NCBI GenBank assembly: GCA_963751665.1
Contig: CAVVVF010000003.1
Location: 105,349 to 169,348, forward strand
Origin: an uncultured Actinomycetes bacterium
Lineage (GTDB): Bacteria > Actinomycetota > UBA4738 > HRBIN12
Length of the DNA: 64,000 nucleotides
Direction: 5' to 3'
In this document: positions 9,255 through 63,069 of the stretch, piece by piece
How positions within the stretch are numbered: position 1 is the first letter of the stretch
Layout: every line of letters begins with the position of its first letter
Notes under the pieces: model-generated
Seen by the model: only the letters and a program-made list of their open reading frames with translations
What the model was told of the DNA's origin: nothing
Database searches by the model: none
Made by a program: the position numbers and the translations under genes

Positions 9255-10743
9255 ATGGACGCGCTGATCAGGCGCCTGGGTGGCGCGATGCTCGCGCTGT
9301 TCGTGGTGCTCCTCGCGCAGGTCACCTACATCCAGGTGGTCGCGTCGGATCGCCTAGCCGATAACCCGGCCAACGCCACCCGCCAGCTGATCGCCGAGTA
9401 CCGGGTGGACCGGGGAAGCATCGTGGCCGCCGACGGGAAGACCTTCCTGGCGGTCAGCAGGAAGAGCCCCGGGGAACTGAAGTACCAGCGGCACTACCCG
9501 CAGGGACCGCTGTACGCCGACATCACCGGCTACTACTCGGTCATCTTCGGACGGAGCGGGCTCGAGCAGAGCTACAACAGCTATCTGTCCGGCGATGCGC
9601 CGGAGCTGATCCCCCAGACGCTGATCGACCAAGTCCTGGGCCGGCCCAAGCGAGGCGCCACCGTCGTAACCACGATCGATCCGGTGATCCAGCGGGCCGC
9701 GGCGCAGGCCCTGCGGAACCTGCCCGGGGGCGTCGTGGCCATCGACCCCCACACCGGCGACGTGAAGGCCATCGTGGCCAACCCCACCTACGATCCCGAA
9801 CGAGCTCGCCTCGCAGGACCCCAAGCAGGTCCGAGCGGCCTGGGACCGCCTGACCTCCGACCCGGACAAGCCGCTCCTGTCCAGGGCCATCGACGAGCTG
9901 TATCCGCCGGGATCGACGTTCAAGGTGGTGACCGCGTCGGCCGCCCTGGAGAACGGGTTCGGGCCCGACAGCACGTGGCCGAACCCGCCGGTGCTGGACC
10001 TCCCCCAGACCACCGCGACGCTGGAGAACTTCGGCGGCGAGCACTGCCTGGGGGGCGCATCGCAGATCACCCTGGCCCAGGCCCTGACGATCTCGTGCAA
10101 CGTGGTGTTCGGCCAGGTCGGGTTGAAGCTCGGCGCGGACAAGCTGGCCGCCCAGGCTCACGCCTTCGGGTTCGCGCCGGACGCCTCGAGCGGCGACGTC
10201 CCCTTCGACATCCCCTTCCAGGAGGGGGTGTTCCCCGACGCGTCGTACTTCGCCGACCGGCTGCCGGCCGTGGCGCTGTCGGCCATCGGACAGGACAACG
10301 TGGCGGCCAACCCCATGCAGATGGCCCTGGTGGCCTCGGCCATCGCGAACGGCGGCTCGGAGATGCGGCCACGACTGGTGTCGGAGATCCGGGACCCGAG
10401 CGGCCAGGTGGTCAAGACGTTCTCGCCCGAGGTGTTCGGGCAGCCCATCTCGTCGCAGACCGCCATCCAGCTCACCCAGATGATGGTGAGCGTGGTGCAG
10501 AGCGGGACGGGGACGGCGGCCCAGATCCCGGGCGTCGAGGTGGCGGGCAAGACCGGAACGGCCCAGCACGGGGAGGGGCTCCCGCCCCACGCCTGGTTCG
10601 TCTCCTTCGCCCCCGCCCAGAACCCAAGGATCGCGGTCGCCGTCATCGTCCTCGACGGGGGTAGCCTTGGCAGCGACGCGACGGGCGGCGTGGTGGCCGC
10701 CCCCATCGCCAAGGCGGTCATGGAGGCCGCATTGCATGAGTGA
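9255..10743 (+). CDS. pbpA: PbpA, class B penicillin-binding transpeptidase; 1 frameshift as given
   Basis: ORF 9255..10664 supplies the N-terminal TM helix and the first about 180 aa. From about 9800 the frame of ORF 9925..10743 carries the rest. Motifs: PPGSTFKVVTA (SxxK), SCN, KTGTA. Confidence 0.85.
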
Positions 10744-53656: not shown

Positions 53657-54885
53657 CACGAAGCAGATGCTGCAGCGCGCTCGGGATCGGTTCGAGCCTC
53701 CCGAGGACGTGATGGGCTCGCTGATCCGCCGACGCGAGCGGAAGGAGCGGAACCGGCGCATCTCCGCGGGGGCTCTCGCGATCATCCTCGCGCTCGTGAG
53801 CTTCGTGGCCCTGACGCGTGCCTTCCGCAGCGCCGAGCGTCCCGCGGACCACGAACCGACGCCGAAGCCCCCAGGCATCTTCTCGGAGGTCGGCGGCTGG
53901 ATCGTGTACGGGCCGCTGAGCGAGAGGTGCGAGCCATCGCCCTGCGGAACCGAGGGGATCTGGGCGGTGGATCCGACGCACCCGGACGACCCGGAACGGC
54001 CAGATCCAGCTGAGCACGAACCGAGGGACCCCGCTGGCGTGGTCGAGCGACGGCTCGAAGCTGCTCATCCTGCGGACCAACAACGTCCGCCCACCGGGCC
54101 TTCGTCGGCAGCAACCTCTTCGTGTTGAACGCGGACGGAACCGAGACGCGGTTGACGGAGGGTGACGCCTGGTCGGCGGCGGCTCGTTCTCCCCGGACGG
54201 CACGAAGGTCGTGTACGCCACCGGGGCTACGGGGTCGAGCCACCCGGGCATCTACGTGGTCGACGCTGCGGGCGGCACGCCGCAGCGTCGCTCCTCACCG
54301 GACGAGGGAGCTGCAAGCGCCGACGTTCTCCCCCGACGGGTCGAAGATCGCCTACTTCGATGGCCTCGGGCATTCGTGGCATACCGCCTCCGGGTGATGA
54401 ACGCCGACGGGAGCGGCTCGCGCGGACTTGAGCCACGACGTACGTTCGACGATACACGGGCGGTACCACACTCGGAGCCTCGTCTGGTCTCCCGACGGCA
54501 CACGCCTCGCGATCGACCTCCTGCGAGATATCTACACGTCGGGGCCGACGGCTCGGGATCTCACCCTGGTGATCCCGCACGGTGGGAATCCGAACTGGTC
54601 GCCGGACGGCTCCCGCATCGCGTACGACTCTCGAGGACGTCTCGACCGCATCCGGATCGCCCGCTCAGATCGCGGACGCAGACGGGACAGAACATCCAGG
54701 AGTTCGGCTACGCCCGATCTGGGCCGTGGAACCCGCTGGTCCAGCCGGAGCCGGAGGTCGCCGAGGCGCCGGTGGCGAGCGAGGGCTCGACGCCGGCCTC
54801 GATCCTTCTGCCGGTAGCAGCCCTCCTGACCCTGGTCGTTGGCTTCGTTCTCATGCGTCGTCGGCGTAGGGCCCCGGGCGCGTGA
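53649..54885 (+). CDS. Probable anti-sigma / membrane-anchored PD40 (TolB-like) beta-propeller protein, copy 1; several frameshifts as given
   Basis: ATG 53649 overlaps the sigma gene end. TM helix ISAGALAIILALVSFVAL. The gene is spread over ORFs 53640.., 54122.., 54211..54885 and others. Repeats read FSPDGTKVVY, FSPDGSKIAYFDG, VWSPDGTRLAID, NWSPDGSRIAYDS. C-terminal TM helix plus RRRRR. Confidence 0.55.
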
Positions 54886-56069
54886 TCCGCCTCAGACGGA
54901 AGGAGCGGAACCGTCGCATCTCGGCGGCGGTCATCGGGATCGCAATCGGGTTCCTCAGCCTCGCGGGCCTGACGTGGGTCCTCCGCAGCGCCGGGCGCGC
55001 TGCGGACGAACCGCCCCCGCCGAAGCCCTCAGGCATCTTCTCGGAAGTCGGCGGCTGGATCGTGTACGGGGACCAGCAAGGGATCTGGGCGGTGGACCCG
55101 TCGCATCCCGGCGATCGCGAGAGCCGGGTCCAGTTGAGCTCCAACGGGGGGATCCCGCTCGCGTGGTCGAGCGACGGGTCGGAGCTCCTCATCTCGCGCG
55201 AGTTCTGGGTTCTCCTTTCGCGACGTCAACTTCGGCATGGGGAGGAGTTGCCGGCTTCGCGGCGCGGGCTGTTCGTGCTGCACGCGGACGGCACGGAGAC
55301 CCATCTGGTCCGCGAGGAGGTCAGCGGCGCCTCCTTCAGCCCCGACGGGACGACGGTCGTCTTCGCGCCGTCGCTCGAGCTGAACCGACCCACCTCGACC
55401 CGGGCATCTACAGCATCGACGCCGACGGCGGCGTGCCGAGGCTGCTCGTCGAATCTAGCAGCCGCTACATCCCGGAGCAGGACCGCAGCTTCCGCACCGG
55501 TGTGTACTTCCCGACGTTCTCACCCGACGGGACGCAGATCGCGTACTTCGATGGCTTCGGGGACAACAGCCATAGCCTGCGCGTGGTCAACGCCGACGGG
55601 GGCGATCTGCACGTGCTGATCGACAACATGGAGGCGTACCGCATCACCAACCTCGTCTGGTCGCCCGACGGCAAGACTCTCGCGTTCGGCCGCAGAATCA
55701 ATGACGGGGTCTACACGATCGGGGTGGACGGCTCAGGGCTCACGCTCGTGATCCCCGATGGGGTGAATCCGCACTGGTCGCTAGACGGCTCCCGCATCTC
55801 GTACGATCGCGAGAGAACGGACGAGAGCCGCCGCGATCTCTACATCGCTGATCGGGACGGAACTCACGTTCAGTTACTTCCGCTTCGGCTTCGCGGCATC
55901 CGGGCCGTGGAACCCGCTCGTCCAGCCGGAGCCCGCGGTCGCCGAGGCGCCGGCGGCGAGCGAAGGCCTGACGTTGACCTCGACGCTCCTTCTCGTGGTG
56001 GCCTTCCTGGCCCTGGTCGCAGGGGCCGTCCTCATTCGCCGTCGGATGCAGAAGACAAGGGGCGCGTGA
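54882..56069 (+). CDS. PD40 beta-propeller membrane protein, copy 2 (tandem paralogue lacking the first about 25 aa of copy 1); frameshifts as given
   Basis: GTG 54882 (GTGA overlap). RKERNRRISAAVIGIAIGFLSL, PSGIFSEVGGWIVYG and GIWAVDPSHP parallel copy 1. It continues in ORF 54839..56119 (FSPDGTQIAYFDG, VWSPDGKTLAF). The last frame gives SGPWNPLVQPEPAVAEAP, a TM helix and RRRMQKTRGA, with TGA 56067..56069. Confidence 0.55.
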
Positions 56070-56135
56070 CTCGGTCGATCCTGTCGAGCCGAAGCGGCGG
56101 TCATCAGGCCACCGTCTGATCAGCGTCTTGGGAAG

Positions 56136-56208
56136 TGGAGACGAGCGGACTCGAACCGCCGACCCCCTGCTTGCAAAGCAGGTGCTCTACCGACTGAGCT
56201 ACGTCCCC
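56136..56208 (-). tRNA. tRNA-Ala (anticodon TGC)
   Basis: Reverse complement reads GGGGACG...CGTCTCC, with the G3:U70 Ala identity pair. Anticodon stem CCTGC/GCAGG with loop TTTGCAA. T-loop TTCGAGT. 73 nt; CCA is not encoded. Confidence 0.9.
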
Positions 56209-56320
56209 GCCGTCCATGATAGGCGGCGGACGACGGCCCGGCCGTAGCAGCAAGGCTGGGAACGGAACCCTTCCCCGAACTCCGGTGTAGTGGGAGCATC
56301 ACTTCTGGAGGGAGACCTTC

Positions 56321-56952
56321 ATGCGACGGACCCTGCTCGTGACGGCGGTCGCCACGGTGGTCGCTCAGCGTCCTCCATGTGGCCAGCCCAGGCGAAGGGG
56401 CTCGAGGAGCACGCCCGGGTGGTGGTCCGGGGTCCCGGGCTCGCCGATCCCATCCGGCTGAGCGGGGAGGAGGCGTTCGTCTTCGTTGGACGATCCGGAG
56501 CCTTCCAGCCTAAGTGGGACGTGCCCAACCTCGGGGGCGACCTCACGCCCGACGCGGATCTCGGCATGGCGTACCGGGCGGTCGTCACCCTGCGCTGCGG
56601 GAAGGGCAGGCAGGCCACGTACAGCCAAACCTTGTTCCCGGAGGCGCCCGGCGGGCTCCAGGTCCTCACTCCTCCTGGGGCCACGCAGTGCTACGGGATC
56701 GATGCCATGCCCGGGTACTGGCCGGCTGCGGACGAGCTCCTCACGCTGCTCGTGAGCAAAGGGTTGCCGGTGAGCACCGGCGAGCAGGGAACCGCCGACG
56801 ACCGCTCCAAGGCCCAAGCCGTCGCGGGCGACGGGGGGTCCGGCGGGTCGTTCGGGGCAGGCCTGGCCATCACGATCGCGCTCGCGGTGGCCCTCGCGCT
56901 CCTGGGCATCGGCATCGGGCTCGCCGCGAGGCGGCGACGCGGGACGGCCTAA
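56321..56952 (+). CDS. Secreted protein with C-terminal TM anchor and Arg-rich tail; 1 frameshift as given
   Basis: ATG 56321, 9 nt after GGAGG, gives the signal MRRTLLVTAVATVV. A -1 shift near 56360 moves into ORF 56290..56952 (..WPAQA|KGLEEH...). It ends GAGLAITIALAVALALLGIGIGLAARRRRGTA. Confidence 0.55.
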
Positions 56953-56961
56953 CGCTACGCG

Positions 56962-57624
56962 CTACGGCGTCGGGGAGGCCGTGGGGCTGGGCGTCAGCGT
57001 GGGGCTCGGTGAAGGCGAGGGAGACGGTGAAGGCGACGGCGAGGGCGACGGCGAAGGCGACGGCGAAGGAGAAGGTGGGGGAAGCTCCTGCTGGACGGGG
57101 CCGTCGTCGGGGACGCGATCCAGGCACGTCCGAGGACACGACGGGCCGGTGAACTGGGTCACCACCCACCAGGAGTAGGACGTCCGGTTCGGCCCGAACC
57201 GAAGCTTGTCCAGGCCCACTGACAGGGTCGCGCCCTCCGGACCCTTCTTTCGGACGGCGATCCGTCCGACGATCGTGTCCGGACCACGAGGCCGCCGGCG
57301 GAACAGCCTCCCGACAAGGTCGCGTCCGTTCGACCGTGCGACGGCGATGTAGTCCTCCTCCGCGTCTCCGCGCGTGTCGAGGAGCACCAAGATGAACCCG
57401 CTGTCCCGGATGTCCCCCGCGGTCCAGTAGGCGAACGTGTGGATGGTCCACGTTGGCGGGCTGGGCTCGGCCGTGAACGCCACCGTCCTGACGTCGAGGC
57501 GACCCGCGGTGTCGTTTCCGTCCGCGTAGTCGTCGTGCGCCGCGAGCGCCATGGGAAGGCTCATCAGCAGGAGCCCTCCCAACAGCACGCCGGCGAGACA
57601 CGCTAGGCCTAGGCTTTGCCTCAC
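56962..57624 (-). CDS. Secreted hypothetical protein ending in a (Ser-Pro)n tail; last gene of the mau-like operon
   Basis: GTG 57624 (GTGA overlap with the MauE-like stop) inside ORF 56962..58044. Signal peptide VRQSLGLACLAGVLLGGLLLMSLPMALA|AHDD, a globular part of about 150 aa, then PPPSPSPSPS...TLTPSPTASPTP. Confidence 0.65.
   Translation of the reverse strand: MRQSLGLACLAGVLLGGLLLMSLPMALAAHDDYADGNDTAGRLDVRTVAFTAEPSPPTWTIHTFAYWTAGDIRDSGFILVLLDTRGDAEEDYIAVARSNGRDLVGRLFRRRPRGPDTIVGRIAVRKKGPEGATLSVGLDKLRFGPNRTSYSWWVVTQFTGPSCPRTCLDRVPDDGPVQQELPPPSPSPSPSPSPSPSPSPSPSPSPSPTLTPSPTASPTP
57006..57078. repeat. Hexanucleotide tandem repeat encoding (Ser-Pro)n
   Basis: GGTGAAGGCGAGGGAGACGGTGAAGGCGACGGCGAGGGCGACGGCGAAGGCGACGGCGAAGGAGAAGG on the plus strand. 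It reads as about 12 SP units on the minus strand. Confidence 0.8.
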
Positions 57625-58751
57625 GTGGTCCTCCTGGCGCGGAGGGATCGGAGGGATGAGGCGAGCGTCCACGCCGTCACCACAAGACCGGTAACCACGA
57701 GGGCCGCCGGGAGCGCGTCGCCGGCTGTTGGAAGGCCCGGCAGGGCGGGGCGGGGCGCGTCGGAGCCGCCGAAGGCGGCGATCGACGCGCCGCCGGCCAG
57801 GACTGCGTTTCGAAGGAGCAGGATCCGGTAGTCCCGCGGCTCGCTGGTCCCGAAGCATCCACAAGCCACCGCGTCCCCGAGCCGCCGGCGCGCCTGGAGG
57901 ATCGCGGCCGAGAAGGCGGCCAGCATCACCAGGGCGGCGACTCCGGCCGTCCGGTGCATCCCCAGCACGACCAGGCCAACGACCGCGGCCTCGGCGACCG
58001 GCACCCCGACCCCTGAAGTCCGCTCCAACCACTGCGGCAGCCAATAGGCCGCCAGGACCCGGCGCCAGGAGTCGGGACGAGCGAGCTTGGCCCCGGCCGA
58101 CCAGGCGAACGCGGCACCGAGCACGGCCGCGGCCATCCCGGCGATGTGCAGGTCACCCGTCGGGAGCACGGCCGCTGCGGCCACGGCCACCGCGAGGAGC
58201 GCCGCGACGTGGGCCGCTCGCCAAGCCGGGGAGGAGGCGCTCCGGGCCAGCCGGGCCACCATCGTCGAGCCCTCCTCGGGCGATCGCACCCGAGCCGCCA
58301 CGAGCACCGACAGGCCTCGGGCCAGCCCGAACGGGGCCACGATGGCCGCCCCCACGAGGGGCCTCCCCGAGGCGGCCGCGGCCAACGCCACCACCACCAG
58401 CGTCCCATGGGTGAGGTACGTGAGGAACCCGACGCCCAGCCCCGCCCCGTACAGGAAGGCCGCCACCGGTACGGAGAAGAACGTCCGCCACCACTGTGGG
58501 ACTTGCCTACGGAGCTGCGGCACCGGCATCGACAGGACGCTCGCCTCTCGCACCAGGTACAGCGCGGCGACGAGAGCGATGAGGAGCGCCCCGCTCCCTC
58601 CCCATGGCGCCCCGAGCAACGAGCCCGCCGCACCGAGGATCGCGCCGAAGGCCGCCGCGGACGCCACCGCGCCCGTCACGTGGAGCGAGACGCTTCCAGC
58701 CCACCTTCCGGCTCGTCCCCCGTGGACCACGGGGGTGATGGTCTCCACCAT
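57621..58751 (-). CDS. Polytopic membrane protein; the C-terminal half is MauE/DoxX-like (CGCFG motif), the N-terminal half is unassigned
   Basis: Track ORF, 376 aa, about 9-10 TM helices. The C-terminal part ...AAFSAAILQARRRLGDAVACGCFGTSEPRDYRILLLRNAVL matches the MauE hallmark as I remember it. Confidence 0.65.
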   Translation of the reverse strand: MVETITPVVHGGRAGRWAGSVSLHVTGAVASAAAFGAILGAAGSLLGAPWGGSGALLIALVAALYLVREASVLSMPVPQLRRQVPQWWRTFFSVPVAAFLYGAGLGVGFLTYLTHGTLVVVALAAAASGRPLVGAAIVAPFGLARGLSVLVAARVRSPEEGSTMVARLARSASSPAWRAAHVAALLAVAVAAAAVLPTGDLHIAGMAAAVLGAAFAWSAGAKLARPDSWRRVLAAYWLPQWLERTSGVGVPVAEAAVVGLVVLGMHRTAGVAALVMLAAFSAAILQARRRLGDAVACGCFGTSEPRDYRILLLRNAVLAGGASIAAFGGSDAPRPALPGLPTAGDALPAALVVTGLVVTAWTLASSLRSLRARRTT

Positions 58752-58831
58752 CGAGAGCCCTCAGGGACCGAAGAGCGTGGAGATGCCCGCGACGATCGAC
58801 GCGACGACCACGGCGATCGTTACGGGCTCGC

Positions 58832-59359
58832 TCAACATGCCATGTTGAGCTCCCGGTACGCGATGCAGAAGACTCGAAGGGCGTCCGGGCAGTACCCCCG
58901 AACCGAGGCGTCGCCGTTGATACGGATGTTCGAGGTCGAGCAGCAGTCCTGGATGTGGCGGACCCGCCCGGCGCAGCATCGGCTCCAGCCACCCCCGTAG
59001 CGCGGATCCTTCACCCCCGGATACTCGTCGGGGACCCGGGTCTGGCAGATCTTCCTTCGTCGCTGTCGGGGGTCTGTGTAGATCCGGCCGTCGTCGTCCA
59101 CGGGATAGCCGTGAACCGGATGCACCGGGTAGCCGAAGGCGTCAACACGCGTGAGTGGTGCGAACGGGTGCGGGCACGACCCGGTGGTGTACAGGTGGCC
59201 GCAGATGTGGTGGGCTTCCGCCCGCTCGGGCGCGAGCGCGACGGCGACGAACGATCCGCCAGCCAGGGCGACCACGGCCCGTCCCACCTTGCCCAGGAAC
59301 GAGCGCCTGCTCGTCCGGCGGGCCAGCTCGACGGGCATGCGGGCGAGCTCGGGGCGCAT
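58832..59359 (-). CDS. Tat-exported Cys-rich small protein resembling methylamine dehydrogenase light chain (MauA-like)
   Basis: Track ORF, 175 aa. Tat signal TSRRSFLGKVGRAVVALAGGSFVAVALAPERAEA. The mature region has 10 Cys and one Trp, with core GGGWSRCCAGRVRHIQDCCS. The start ATG overlaps the MauD-like stop (TGATG). Confidence 0.6.
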   Translation of the reverse strand: MRPELARMPVELARRTSRRSFLGKVGRAVVALAGGSFVAVALAPERAEAHHICGHLYTTGSCPHPFAPLTRVDAFGYPVHPVHGYPVDDDGRIYTDPRQRRRKICQTRVPDEYPGVKDPRYGGGWSRCCAGRVRHIQDCCSTSNIRINGDASVRGYCPDALRVFCIAYRELNMAC

Positions 59360-59856
59360 CAGCCCGCCCGGGCCTCCTGGAGCTCAGAGGTCATCCGGCG
59401 GGCGGCCGTGTCGACCAGCCCCTCCAACTGTTCCAGGTCATTCACCGTGCCCTTGGCCCTGACGACCCCGGACGGGTCGAGGATCACGACGAACGGAACG
59501 CCCGGGACGGCCCAGGCCCGCTCGGCCTCCGGATCGGACACGACCTGCGGGACCAGCCCCGCCGCCCTCGCCGCCGCGGGGACCGACGGGCGGACCTGCT
59601 CGCAGACCGGACAGGTCGAGGACTCGAACACGACCAGGCGGCCACCGCCCGGGCCTCCCAGGTCGACGGCCGAGCCGTCCGCCGCCCTGGCGCGAAGAAG
59701 GGGCGGCGTCTGGCCGAGCGGCGGCCCCTCGTCGTCGATCTCCAGGGCGCCGAGCGGGCCCAGCCGAAGGTGCAGCACGCCGACCTGGCGGGCCAGGGCC
59801 ACGACCACGACGCACACTGCGATGAGCAGGAACCACTGGACGGCGAAGGCTGCCAT
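59359..59856 (-). CDS. Membrane-anchored thioredoxin-fold protein (MauD/TlpA-like, CPVC motif)
   Basis: ATG 59856 (or GTG 59871) inside ORF 59359..60522. TM helix MAAFAVQWFLLIAVCVVVVALA, then LVVFESSTCPVCEQV and GVPFVVILDPSGVV. Confidence 0.7.
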   Translation of the reverse strand: MAAFAVQWFLLIAVCVVVVALARQVGVLHLRLGPLGALEIDDEGPPLGQTPPLLRARAADGSAVDLGGPGGGRLVVFESSTCPVCEQVRPSVPAAARAAGLVPQVVSDPEAERAWAVPGVPFVVILDPSGVVRAKGTVNDLEQLEGLVDTAARRMTSELQEARAG

Positions 59857-59876
59857 CCACCACCCCGGCACGAGCG

Positions 59877-60497
59877 CTAGGCCTCCCCCCGCGCGGGGAC
59901 GGACTCGACCTCGGTCAGGTCCACGAAGGGGAGCTTCTCCGGGGCCATCCAGCTCGGCTCTCCCTTCTTGTCCATGAACTGGATCACCGGCGTGCCCTCC
60001 GCCGTGAGTCCCATGATGGCCCGGAGCTCGCCGTCCTTGTTCAACAGGCGCAGGATGGGCGAGCCCTCGGCTGCCAGGCCCAGCCTGGCCCGCACCTTCC
60101 CGTCCTCGTCCTGGAGCGAGATGGTGGGAGATCCCTGCTGCGCCAGGCTGTACACGAAGCCGAGCTGTCCGTCCTTGTTCCGGAGCGCGAGCGTCGGCGA
60201 GCCCTCGGTCGACAGTCCGAACTTCGCCCGGACCTTCCCGTTGTGGTCCACCATGGCCATGCTGGCCGAGCCGTCTGAGAACAGGCCGAAGGTGGCTCGG
60301 ACCTTGCCCTCGTCGTCGGCGATGGCCAGGCCGGCGGAGCCGTCGAGCTGAACCCCGAACCGGGCCCGCAGCCGCTCGTCCGGGCCGTAGAACGCGACGA
60401 ACGGCGAGTCGTCGTTCGTCACCCCAAGCCGGGCCCGCACTCGCCCTTGCGAATCCTCGACCTCGATCTCGCCCGTGCGTACGACGCGTTTCTTCAT
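59877..60497 (-). CDS. Repeat protein: about 8 tandem 23-residue units; first gene of the mau-like operon
   Basis: Track ORF, 206 aa. Units such as GLAIADDEGKVRATFGLFSDGSA, SMAMVDHNGKVRAKFGLSTEGSP, TISLQDEDGKVRARLGLAAEGSP and ILRLLNKDGELRAIMGLTAEGTP. No signal peptide or TM helix. Confidence 0.7.
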   Translation of the reverse strand: MKKRVVRTGEIEVEDSQGRVRARLGVTNDDSPFVAFYGPDERLRARFGVQLDGSAGLAIADDEGKVRATFGLFSDGSASMAMVDHNGKVRAKFGLSTEGSPTLALRNKDGQLGFVYSLAQQGSPTISLQDEDGKVRARLGLAAEGSPILRLLNKDGELRAIMGLTAEGTPVIQFMDKKGEPSWMAPEKLPFVDLTEVESVPARGEA

Positions 60498-60639
60498 GGT
60501 TCTGCCCCTCGCTGCCAGCCACCCGTGCTCGCCGCTAGCATGGCGCGACCGGCGACCTATCGCAAAGTACCCGGGTACGGGTGGGGGTCAAGCACATCGA
60601 AGGGATGGCGGGATCGGTCGGCGGGGCCGGAAATGAGAA

Positions 60640-60667
60640 GCCGCCGAAACCCGAAGGTCCCAGCGGC
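60640..60667 (-). terminator. Intrinsic-terminator-like hairpin after the OSBS/NSAR-like gene
   Basis: On the minus strand: GCCGCUGGGACC-UUCG-GGUUUCGGCGGC (12 bp including 3 G-U pairs), followed by UUCUCAUUUCC. It lies 62 nt after the stop at 60729 and separates that operon from the mau-like operon. Confidence 0.5.
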
Positions 60668-60728
60668 CTCTCGGACTGCACTGTACGGGACGGCGAGTTC
60701 GCCGGTCAAGCCGCGCCTCCTTGTCTTG

Positions 60729-61842
60729 TCACTCTTTCTTCAGAACCTCGGTCCGCAGGGTGCACTGGGCCAGCCGGTCGGGACGGGGTATCACGCCGAT
60801 CCCCGGGTCTGCTGGCACCGCCATCGTGCCGTCCGGATCCATGTCGAACGGTTCGGTGATGTCGTCGTGGAAGTACCGCCGGCTCGCGCTGGTGTCGCCG
60901 GGGAGCACGAAGCCGGGGAGCGCGGCGAGCGCCAGGTTGGTGGCCCGGCCGATCCCGGTCTCCAGCATGCCCCCGCACCACACCGGTACGCCTCGGGCAA
61001 GGCAGGCGTCGTGGACACGCTTCGCCTCCAAGAGGCCGCCGACCCTGCCCTGCTTGACGTTCACGATGCGGCACGAGCCGAGCTCGATCGCCGCCTCCGC
61101 ATGGGCCGCCGAGCGGATCGACTCGTCGAGGCAGATGTCGGTCCGGATCTCGCCGCTGGAGCTTGGCGTGCTCGACCAGGTCCTCGTGATGGAGCGGCTG
61201 CTCCAGCATCAGAAGGTCGAAGCGATCGAGCGCCCGGAAGGTCGGGGCGTCGTCGAGCGAGTAGGCCGCGTTCGCGTCGACCGACAGGCTGGCTACCGGG
61301 TTCGCCTCCCGGACCGCCGCGACACGGTCGACGTCGAGGCCCGGCTGGATCTTGAGCTTGACGCGGCGATATCCCTCGGCCATGTACCCGGCCACCTCCT
61401 CCAGCAGCTGTTCGGTGCTCGGCGGGATGCCGACCGACACGCCGCACGCCACGCGGTCCTTGTCGGCGCCGAGGTACGCGGCGAGGGACTCACCCCGGGC
61501 CCGGAGCTCCGCATCCAGGACCGCGTTCACCAGGGTGGCCTTAGCCATAGGGTTCCCCCGGACGAAGGCGAAGACGCCACCGAGGTCCTCGGCCCGGACC
61601 TCGCCGGCTTCGAACAGCGCCGGCGCCAGGAAGTCCCGGAGGAGGAGCCACGCGCCCTCGTTGAACTCCTCGGAGAAGCCGGGGTCGGGCCCGGCGACGC
61701 ACTCCGCCCACCCCTCGGCGTCGTCGGTCTCCACCCTAGCCAGGATGCAGGCCTTCTCGGTCTCCTCGCCGAAGCTGGTGCGGAACGGACGGACCAGGGG
61801 GAGCGCGATCAGGCGGAGCTCGATCGCTCGGGCGACCGTCAT
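60729..61842 (-). CDS. Enolase-superfamily o-succinylbenzoate synthase / N-succinylamino-acid racemase-like enzyme; 1 frameshift as given
   Basis: ATG 61842 inside ORF 60706..61941 (LPLVRPFRTSFGEE, KLKIQPG, SLSVDANAAY, MLEQPL). A shift near 61150 gives RTDICLDESI..., then ORF 60729..61064 (VNVKQGRVGG, WCGGMLETGIGRA). Confidence 0.78.
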
Positions 61843-62696
61843 GCCAGTTCGCCGGCCGCGGTGGCCGGAACCGTAAGGACGTACCTCGGCCCCTCGGGCT
61901 CGCGGGTGAAACCGAGCACGATCATGCCGAGGTCGAAGCACCGGCCGAGGACCTCGCCCACGGCGTCACGCCACTCCGAGGCGAGAGCGGGATCCCGTTC
62001 CTTGAGTCCCGAGTAGTCGGCTGGGATGCTCACTCGCACGGTCCCGCCCGCCGCCACCCTCGGCTCCTCCCCCCGCTCCGGCTTGGGCATCCCCAGCGGC
62101 CCGCTCGCACGGAGGGCCGCCACCTCCGGCCCAATTGGGGCCGCGTATGGCGCGATCACGTGATCCAGGTCCCATCGGACCACGAGCCGGTCGCTCCGGT
62201 CGCCACGGTTCAGCACATCGCGTCATCGCGCCGTAGAAGTTCCGATGGAACCGGTCGCACAACACGCCGAGCTTGTTTAGGTTGAAGTGGGCGTTTCGGG
62301 CCTGGAGCGGATCGAAGGTCCACCGGACCACGCGATAGCCCGCATCCATGGCCTGCGCCCGTTGCGCCAGCTTCAGTGCGTAGCCGACGCCACGGGACCG
62401 CAACCCTGGGAGAACCGCCAGCATGTGCGAGTGCACGTGCGGCCCATCCCGGTCCAAGCCCACCCACCCAGGACGTAGCCGACCAGCTCGCCCTGCCGGA
62501 ACGCCCCGTACGGCTCGTTGCCGCTGTCGGCCAGGGCCCGGAGCATCTCCCGGGGAACGAGCTGGTGCTCTCCCCAGGTCGCCACCATCACACGGAGGAT
62601 CCGATCGGCGTCCTCGATGGCCGACAGTGGCCGGACCTCGACGTCCGCCGCCATCGCGGCGTCCTCCGCCAGCTTCCAGGCATCGTTCCCCGCCAT
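61839..62696 (-). CDS. GNAT-family acyltransferase-like protein; 2 frameshifts as given
   Basis: ATG 62696 in ORF 62373..62720, then ORF 61966..62463 (HVHSHMLAVLPGLRSRGVGYALKLAQ), then ORF 61839..62216. Shifts lie near 62466 and 62221. The stop overlaps the next ATG (ATGA). Confidence 0.6.
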
Positions 62697-62972: not shown

Positions 62973-62994
62973 CAGGGTCCATCTCCTTTCGCAG

Positions 62995-63069
62995 TGGGCC
63001 TGGTTGGACTTGAACCAACGACCTCATCCTTATCAGGGATGCGCTCTAACCGTGCTGAGCTACAGGCCC
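62995..63069 (-). tRNA. tRNA-Ile (anticodon GAT)
   Basis: Reverse complement reads GGGCCTG...CAGGCCC for the acceptor. Anticodon stem CATCC/GGATG with loop CTGATAA. T-arm GTTGG-TTCAAGT-CCAAC. 75 nt; CCA is not encoded. Confidence 0.9.

Follow-up and report, generated by a model that had tools for sequence, protein, structure and literature searches.

Introduction

The closest described relatives of the system analysed here are the proteobacterial mau clusters (mauFBEDACJGMN), which encode the light chain MauA and the heavy chain MauB of methylamine dehydrogenase (MADH) together with further proteins such as MauD, MauE, MauF and MauG. To our knowledge, MauF has been without an assigned function since the first description of these clusters, and no account of its mechanism was found in the literature searched. 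MauE also acts outside mau clusters, as a general DsbB-like disulfide-forming protein that replaces DsbB and needs its CXC motif (bioRxiv 10.64898/2026.03.05.709764). In Streptomyces, mauE and mauD are found beside genes for Cys-rich precursors in candidate clusters for peptides that are made ribosomally and modified after translation (RiPPs; decRiPPter; PMC7794033). Known thiol-oxidoreductase selenoproteins comprise DsbA-like, DsbG-like and rhodanese/DsbD-like TsoB families (PMC13188914). Here, we describe a five-gene operon at positions 56962-60497 of a stretch of 64,000 nt (hereafter, the window) on contig CAVVVF010000003.1 of an uncultured actinobacterium (assembly GCA_963751665.1). The operon encodes homologues of MauD, MauE and MauF next to a small exported Cys-rich protein, which we call X.

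We consider it probable that this operon is an export and oxidative maturation module for one client, X, which works through the MauD, MauE and MauF homologues and contains a probable selenocysteine. New here are the dedicated module of MauDEF plus cargo with a common leader type, the fusion of MauF with MauE, a probable selenocysteine in place of the conserved MauF Cys, and the families of X, of a second exported protein (Y) and of a repeat protein. The activity of MauE outside methylamine metabolism and the occurrence of MauE/MauD beside Cys-rich precursors in Streptomyces were already published. The features of the operon are as follows.

59877-60497, minus strand: gene 1, repeat protein of 206 aa (open reading frame (ORF) call)
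59359-59871, minus strand: gene 2, MauD-like protein of 165-170 aa (ORF call; GTG start at 59871, or alternative ATG at 59856)
58832-59359, minus strand: gene 3, X, 175 aa (ORF call)
57621-58838, minus strand: gene 4, re-modelled as a predicted MauF-MauE fusion of 405 aa (as called: 376 aa, 57621-58751)
56962-57624, minus strand: gene 5, Y, 220 aa (GTG start)
58761-58763, minus strand: in-frame TGA of gene 4, proposed selenocysteine codon, residue 26 (conserved codon)
58717-58752, minus strand: two hairpins, candidate selenocysteine insertion sequence (SECIS) element, found 9 nt and 26 nt past the UGA
57855-57863, minus strand: codons of the MauE active site CGC (CXC), followed by Phe-Gly (read from the sequence)
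60680-60709, minus strand: sigma-70-like promoter match TTGACC-18-TACAGT, ~180 nt upstream of gene 1

Comparison with described systems

Like the proteobacterial mau cluster, the operon contains homologues of MauF, MauE and MauD as well as a small Cys-rich exported protein with a long twin-arginine leader (E..R..A.RTSRRSFL.R.G), and its genes are co-directional and tightly linked. It differs from the mau cluster in several respects. MauB, MauG, amicyanin, MauJ, MauM and MauN are not found nearby, and the mature domain of the cargo cannot be recognised as MauA. MauF forms a fusion with MauE (in a sister lineage, MauE with MauD), and the Cys of MauF is replaced by a residue encoded by UGA. Furthermore, the operon has two extra genes, one for a repeat protein built of beta-hairpins and one for an Asp-rich protein that is secreted, and its host belongs to the Actinomycetota. 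The tests for a light chain, for a heavy chain and for MauG all failed. Judged by its sequences, the system resembles the small-subunit maturation branch of the mau cluster without itself being of the mau or aau kind.

With the generalist MauE the operon shares the CXC-Phe-Gly motif, the occurrence without MauA and a thioredoxin-fold partner that is adjacent or fused. In contrast, its MauE is joined to MauF as a domain of the same protein and is tied to one specific cargo gene, and the study of the generalist protein (bioRxiv 10.64898/2026.03.05.709764) covers neither MauF, nor a dedicated client, nor selenocysteine. The Streptomyces RiPP clusters are likewise actinobacterial, and their mauE and mauD adjoin the gene of a Cys-rich product without the remaining mau cluster. 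Compared by description, however, X is a folded domain of 126 aa with a twin-arginine leader rather than a short peptide, and neither MauF nor selenocysteine is reported for those clusters. The quinone-linked oxidases DsbB and VKOR, with their two Cys pairs, and the known thiol-oxidoreductase selenoproteins resemble the system in their thiol-disulfide chemistry at the membrane or in the periplasm, and probably in the use of selenocysteine for a redox Cys with Cys homologues elsewhere, but gene 4 has no sequence relationship to them.

MauD, MauE and MauF homologues

A preliminary description of this locus, made from the sequence, had read gene 2 as a MauD-like protein with a transmembrane helix and a thioredoxin fold, and this reading held up. 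The protein has an N-terminal transmembrane helix (residues 8-26), a thioredoxin fold and a CPVC (CXXC) motif at residue 87. It matched Methylobacterium MauD in BLASTP (E 1.7e-28, 33% identity over 177 aa), and Paracoccus MauD found the gene by tblastn (E 4e-14). The NCBIfam model of MauD, TIGR02661, gave E 1e-24 and 86.8 bits, which is below its equivalog cut-off of 188.6. Gene 2 thus appears to encode a membrane-anchored MauD homologue, but not an equivalog by the NCBI threshold.

Gene 4 had been described as a 376-aa protein with the MauE motif CGCFG in its C-terminal half, located in an operon with gaps of 0-80 nt between the genes. The MauE assignment is supported by a match of PF07291 to residues 205-327 of the 376-aa call (82.9 bits versus a cut-off of 27; E 3e-23), with the active site A-C-G-C-F-G encoded at 57855-57863 and the following codons. 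The MauF identity of the N-terminal half and the UGA upstream of it had been missed. Moreover, the 80-nt "gap" between X and the 376-aa ORF is coding. An ORF of 25 codons runs from the ATG at 58838 to the TGA at 58763-58761, in frame with the 376-aa ORF, and this TGA lies three codons upstream of the ATG of the latter. The short ORF was present in every locus examined, with an ATG or GTG start over the stop of X, and its product is a hydrophobic transmembrane helix ending in ...AG(I/W)S(T/A)L(F/W/Y)GP.

MauF has no Pfam or NCBIfam model, and was defined here from four genuine mau clusters, those of Methylobacterium, Paracoccus, Hyphomicrobium and a fourth genome. Neither Pfam nor NCBIfam matched the N-terminal membrane domain of gene 4, searched with U replaced by C, and its identity as MauF was obtained only by comparison with these real mau clusters. 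The N-terminal 230 aa matched Methylobacterium MauF in BLASTP (E 3e-11, 31% over 144 aa). In a profile comparison by hhalign, gene 4 matched the four genuine MauF proteins with a probability of 99.1% (E 2e-18, 185 columns), and the alignment extended from the upstream helix onward. Motifs common to gene 4 and MauF are SPCG (TWSPCGYS), PQxRRQVP (also PQRRxQVP) and LYGxxLGxxxxTY (LYGxSLGLxYLTY), and the Cys of SPCG in genuine MauF aligns with the TGA of gene 4.

On this evidence, gene 4 is predicted to encode a single polypeptide, a MauF-MauE fusion of 405 aa. It would consist of a first transmembrane helix (residues 6-24), residue 26 (the TGA), a MauF domain to residue ~200 and a MauE domain with C326-G-C328. 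The Cys of gene 4 are confined to the CGC motif, and its potential redox residues are only residue 26 and the CGC at 326-328. Public gene calls all start gene 4 at MVETI and name it as MauE/DoxX family, and a word-indexed homologue search listed the truncated 376-aa forms and no Cys forms.

The in-frame UGA of gene 4

In the lineage to which the window belongs (lineage 1), TGA was found at this position in 79 of 79 loci, always in frame and exactly three codons before the ATG, without any indels. The residues that follow it are G-(L/M/F)-S-M-V-E-T-I. Among the three codons between TGA and ATG, the first encodes Gly with all four GGN codons, the second, (C/T/A)TN, always encodes Leu, Met or Phe while its first and third positions vary, and the third, TCG, always encodes Ser. 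Read through the UGA, the predicted junction is LFGP-U-GLSMVETITPVV. Cys is found at the aligned position in MauF of the four proteobacteria, and in two loci of a sister lineage (AGAWSPCGLSM in L085 and AGAWSPCGFAM in L086).

This sister lineage (lineage 2) was sampled by a metagenome scan with lineage-2 X proteins, which yielded 365 relatives; 80 of these loci were fetched (L091-L170), in addition to L085 and L086. A readable MauF-like gene downstream of X was present in 48 fetched loci, and their SP-x-G position was encoded by TGA in 27, by TGC in 19 and by TGT in two. Putative selenocysteine forms and Cys forms of MauF hence coexist in lineage 2, with near-identical flanks (AGVSGAWSP*GLSMVETFTP versus AGVSGAWSPCGFAMIETFTP). 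Such an alternation of selenocysteine and Cys is the standard comparative criterion for a selenoprotein.

The UGA is followed by two hairpins, at +12 to +27 (GAUGGU-GGAG-ACCAUC) and at +29 to +47 (CCCCCGUG-GUC-CACGGGGG). The apical loop of the second hairpin, at a distance of 33 nt from the UGA, contains G/U (GUC or CGUGU). Pairing was retained in 95% of the cells across 70 distinct sequences, and compensatory changes were found at pair 29-47 (CG to GC in 11 sequences) and at pair 30-46 (CG to UA or UG). The stems are frozen at their synonymous sites (Ser TCG in 76/76, Thr ACC in 75/75, Pro CCC in 76/76 and Gly GGG in 75/76 sequences), whereas third positions in the loops and flanks vary freely. 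The fold downstream of the UGA in the window had a z-score of -2.3, and the selenocysteine forms of lineage 2 also have a hairpin at this offset, for which other codons are used. Because the UGA that aligns with SPCG appears to be translated and is then followed by conserved hairpins, selenocysteine is most likely; we regard this reading of the codon as very probable.

Two other explanations of the codon were ruled out: a reassignment of TGA, since TGA ends neighbouring genes, and a sequencing error, since the TGA is present in 79 independent assemblies. None of the NCBIfam selenoprotein models matched the gene 4 protein.

Several observations weigh against selenocysteine. The hairpins show limited covariation, which is confounded by the constraint on the coding sequence. 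The same position folds in some Cys forms too, and the folding energy after the codon does not separate selenocysteine from Cys forms in lineage 2. It did separate lineage 1 from the two Cys loci, but was dropped as evidence since it gave no separation within lineage 2. Rfam yielded no SECIS or other RNA family match in 56000-61000. A tRNA for selenocysteine was absent from the window and from 46 scanned loci with 20-kb flanks, as is expected for such small samples. Finally, the TGA is followed by a GAGG motif resembling a Shine-Dalgarno sequence and by an ATG, so that a stop with re-initiation is mechanistically possible.

The TGA might therefore be a true stop, by which MauF would be split into a single-helix micropeptide of 25 aa and a 376-aa protein without the SPCG residue, and selenium would play no part. 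The GAGG and ATG are ideally spaced for this, all gene callers begin the protein at MVETI, and the lack of an Rfam SECIS match and of selenocysteine machinery or its tRNA, in the window and the scanned loci, points the same way. Yet, the codons between TGA and ATG evolve as coding sequence and match the G-(L/F/Y)-(S/A) of the Cys homologues, the frame is kept without indels in 79 + 27 loci, and Cys forms likewise keep the methionine, there as an internal residue. TGA and TGC/TGT, moreover, alternate at one position among close relatives, and the stem nucleotides are frozen at synonymous sites. Taken together, these results make a true stop unlikely.

If selenocysteine holds, gene 4 represents a membrane selenoprotein family from an abundant lineage of uncultured soil Actinomycetota that is absent from NCBIfam and from the 2026 prokaryotic catalogue; the table of prokaryotic selenoprotein families in that review lists no MauE, MauF or DoxX family (PMC13188914).

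The cargo protein X

X consists of a twin-arginine leader (residues 1-49) and a mature domain of 126 aa. In family alignments, the mature domain has 10 invariant Cys, an invariant W125 and Y156, and a C-terminal Cys. The X family numbers at least 879 clusters; every one comes from uncultured Actinomycetota, and a Pfam domain was found in none.

The preliminary description had likened X to the light chain MauA, both in its twin-arginine translocation (Tat) signal and in a W...DCC core. The likeness of the leader was confirmed. The Tat signal model TIGR01409 matched X with 18.2 bits (cut-off 16.7). Compared with the MauA family, represented by a 28-member alignment built for profile comparison, the leader gave an hhalign probability of 97.4% (E 1.5e-11), with X 1-38 aligned to MauA 2-44 only. 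BLASTP of the leader against MauA gave 45% over 29 residues (E 2e-4).

The likeness of the mature domain did not stand. With the leaders removed, hhalign of X against MauA gave a probability of 0.7%, and the result was negative in local, relaxed and global modes. The light-chain model PF02975 did not match X at E <= 1, nor was there a Pfam match of any kind. TIGR02659 scored 14.4 bits against a cut-off of 196.85, and matched only leader residues 7-33. Sequence and profile searches of the Protein Data Bank (PDB) with X found no chain of MADH or aromatic amine dehydrogenase (AADH), while the P. denitrificans light-chain sequence, used as a control, did retrieve MADH/AADH chains. The AlphaFold2 (AF2) model of X had a predicted local distance difference test (pLDDT) score of 70, with 83-93 in the blocks of residues 61-120 and 68-83 in those of 121-150. 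Its best Foldseek match in the PDB had E 0.68, and no MADH chain was among the top 50; small disulfide-rich folds are hard for both tools, which makes this a weak negative. A profile search of 1.8 billion representatives with X gave 219 matches, of which the inspected ones proved to be fragmentary, to be frameshift fusions or to belong to the same two lineages; 0 of the 11 retrieved resembled MauA. X as a MauA homologue was thus rejected, as Pfam, NCBIfam, PDB sequence and profile searches and Foldseek found nothing beyond the leader. These comparisons indicate a leader homologous to that of MauA, followed by a 10-Cys fold that is unrelated to MauA or unrecognisably diverged from it.

The absence of a heavy chain and of MauG, noted in the preliminary description, was borne out over a larger region. 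Tblastn with Paracoccus MauB, MauG, MauC, MauJ, MauM and MauN gave no match at E <= 1e-3 in the window and 86 related loci (1.3 Mb), and CXXCH occurs in none of the five products of the operon.

These results bear on the possibility that X, matured by the MauDEF set in the way of MauA, represents the strongly diverged light chain of some new quinoprotein, or of another enzyme with a protein-derived cofactor, in which Y (in lineage 2, an extracytoplasmic domain fused to MauF) replaces the heavy chain. In such a case one would understand why the leader of X is homologous to that of MauA, why each of the four genuine mau clusters has MauF, MauE and MauD along with MauA, and why the pattern W...(R)CC...DCC...(Y)C...C of X loosely parallels W...C...DCC...WC...C of MauA. 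Also, the C-terminal domain of lineage-2 MauF has weak beta-propeller-like Pfam matches. However, the mature domain fails the PF02975, hhalign, PDB profile and Foldseek comparisons given above. It has one invariant Trp and 10 invariant Cys, whereas the MauA alignment has W114 and W165, the two Trp needed for tryptophan tryptophylquinone (TTQ), and 12 Cys in six disulfides. No MauG was found in the 1.3 Mb of neighbourhoods, and Y has neither an invariant His or Met nor any similarity to the lineage-2 domain. We consider a diverged light chain decidedly improbable. As no heavy chain or MauG would be involved, X is probably not a subunit of a TTQ enzyme.

A more speculative idea, to which we give very little credence, is that X carries a protein-derived cofactor or an unusual Cys cross-link (e.g., of W125, Y156 or H55 with Cys), made without MauG by a selenium-dependent MauD-MauF-MauE system. 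If true, X would represent a new class among exported redox proteins, and the catalytic component that has long been missing from small-subunit maturation, classical methylamine dehydrogenase included, would be MauF.

Two further observations concern the leader. At the 5' end of the X gene (59318-59359, minus strand), Tandem Repeats Finder (TRF) detected a direct duplication of 21 nt, by which the n-region of the leader carries the ELAR motif twice (RPELARMPVELARR); the motif is single-copy in more distant X homologues. In the Hyphomicrobium mau cluster (L089), a gene of the TatA/B/E family is located at 9469-9678, after mauG and an ORF of 118 aa. Its presence within a mau cluster may point to Tat components dedicated to leaders of the MauA type.

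Conservation of the operon in two lineages

The five co-directional genes on the minus strand, with overlapping stops and starts, were present as the preliminary description had stated. The stop of gene 2 overlaps the start of X (TGATG at 59357-59361), gene 4 starts with an ATG at 58838 that overlaps the stop of X, and its own stop overlaps the GTG start of Y (GTGA at 57621-57624). These overlaps suggest translational coupling of the genes. The promoter match listed above was the sole sigma-70-like one in the region, with 1 site versus 0.1 expected in shuffled sequences (by consensus match alone).

A survey of the neighbourhoods of X homologues showed that the order repeat protein - MauD-like protein - X - MauF/E - Y is kept in ~80 related genomes, with the same spacing, where the contig is long enough. 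The host lineage consists of uncultured soil Actinomycetota, and a scan with one genome per GTDB species found X in 454 species. The block is flanked by tRNA-Ala (56135-56208) and tRNA-Ile (62994-63069), and is located downstream of gyrB-gyrA. The tRNA flanks had been noted before and taken as a sign of accessory DNA, which was not upheld. A tRNA scan of 45 lineage-1 loci placed the block between tRNA-Ile(GAT) and tRNA-Ala(TGC) in nearly all of them, so that it is a core, syntenic feature of the lineage and not accessory DNA.

In lineage 2, the order is a MauE-MauD fusion, X and MauF. Tblastn found MauD or MauE-MauD in 78 of the 80 fetched loci and MauF in 61, many of the contigs being short. 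X of lineage 2 is longer (~200-208 aa, with an insertion of 25 residues), and its MauF often has a C-terminal extracytoplasmic domain, whose beta-propeller-like Pfam matches (LpqB/WDR11) are weak and sub-threshold. The MauD-like gene adjoins X in ~80 lineage-1 loci and in 78/80 lineage-2 loci, and the membrane partners of X were detected where the contig was long enough and the tblastn threshold was met. Because these genes are found in both lineages despite different fusions, the set common to both, as far as their sequences tell, is MauD, MauE, MauF and X. The earlier suggestion of a different use of the MauD/MauE oxidative-folding machinery for a small exported protein fits this strict co-occurrence; it is the MauA-type light chain that drops out of it.

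Proposed function of the module

In the module as we envisage it, X would be exported through its MauA-like twin-arginine leader, and the CPVC of MauD would introduce five disulfides or other Cys-based cross-links into it. The MauF-MauE protein would re-oxidise MauD. Here, selenocysteine 26 and the CGC motif may form a two-site relay like the two Cys pairs of DsbB or VKOR, from which electrons would pass to the quinone pool. The use of selenocysteine for Cys would mark this MauF residue as catalytically redox-active. Y and the cytoplasmic repeat protein would be lineage-specific additions, possibly a partner or anchor and a chaperone or scaffold, respectively, and neither a heavy chain nor MauG would take part. 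It counts against this model that we infer which way the electrons flow, what MauF does and that X is the substrate of MauD, MauE and MauF.

The alternation of selenocysteine and Cys at the SPCG of MauF is a classical signature of a catalytic redox Cys, and we offer the hypothesis that MauF is a thiol oxidoreductase that acts together with the CXC of MauE and the CXXC of MauD. The MauD/E/F trio would then behave as a portable module for export and oxidative folding, with one leader type and different Cys-rich cargoes, which extends the finding on MauE beyond methylamine metabolism. Its cargo X represents a family of ~900 proteins without a recognised fold.

The least probable alternative is that MauD and MauF-MauE are a housekeeping disulfide system replacing DsbA/DsbB, with X, Y and the repeat protein as mere neighbours or a few of many clients: MauE does complement a dsbB deletion and is widespread without MauA (bioRxiv 10.64898/2026.03.05.709764), and the locus occupies a core site that is conserved, close to gyrBA and with tRNA-Ile and tRNA-Ala on either side, but X lies between the MauD and MauF/E genes, with overlapping stops and starts, in every locus of two divergent lineages despite their differing fusions, and its leader is of a type otherwise specific to MauA, the client of MauDEF.

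Genes 1 and 5

Gene 1 encodes seven and a half beta-hairpin repeats of 23 residues, without a signal peptide and without Cys. The repeat length, already given in the preliminary description, was recovered by BLOSUM autocorrelation (z = 14.7 at lag 23; also at 46 and 69). A single-sequence AF2 model had a pLDDT of 85.7 and 17 strands, and Foldseek matched it to engineered OspA single-layer beta-sheets (E 2e-10, query TM-score (TMq) 0.72), Rhs/YD repeats and MORN repeats. The gene occurs in most lineage-1 loci; it is absent from a few of the 80 fetched loci (L001-L003) and from lineage 2. Neither the gene 1 product nor 18 homologues matched a Pfam family at threshold. Sub-threshold matches of the 18 homologues, located at product residues 57-116, were to the C-terminal hairpin region of YtfJ (12 proteins; best E 5e-4) and to that of Redoxin (11 proteins; best E 2e-3). 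We judged these matches to be a motif-level resemblance; the repeat unit may be derived from that thioredoxin-fold hairpin, or mimic it.

Y has a signal peptide of the general secretory pathway, the Asp-rich motifs DPNDTxGxLD and LDTxGD, a conserved C-x3-C near its end and a tail rich in Ser, Pro and Thr. The Ser-Pro array that had been described at its C-terminus was found by TRF at 57011-57075 (period 6 x 10.8). Y is located downstream of gene 4 in lineage-1 loci where the contig is long enough, and is absent from lineage 2. None of 25 members of the Y family had a Pfam match (0/25), and neither Y nor the repeat protein was similar to any Methylobacterium mau product or to the C-terminal domain of lineage-2 MauF.

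Neighbouring genes

The five operon genes are free of frameshifts, as had been reported, whereas neighbouring genes on both sides are each split across two frames. Directly upstream of the operon is a gene of the enolase superfamily (MR_MLE; 60706-61941, minus strand), of which one ORF covers positions 2-94 of the MR_MLE_C profile and the ORF 60729-61064 covers positions 124-218. Its orthologue in a related locus (L004) is a single gene of 370 aa, and the split is either an assembly indel or a pseudogene. Past tRNA-Ala, on the opposite strand (54882-56119, plus strand), is a gene for a membrane-anchored PD40 protein, a TolB-like beta-propeller that is not MauB-like by tblastn.

An ORF of 220 aa with a C-terminal hydrophobic anchor and without a Pfam match (56290-56952, plus strand) lies between gene 5 and tRNA-Ala, convergent to the operon. 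Since gene 5 and tRNA-Ala are nearly adjacent in many related loci, the ORF may be confined to this sub-lineage or may not be a gene.

The four-gene core was also found on a contig deposited as 'Candidatus Velamenicoccus archaeovorus' (L054; JBHGAT010000148.1), an organism that we take not to be an actinobacterium. This core is actinobacterial, with 71% identity to X, and the contig is probably mis-binned.

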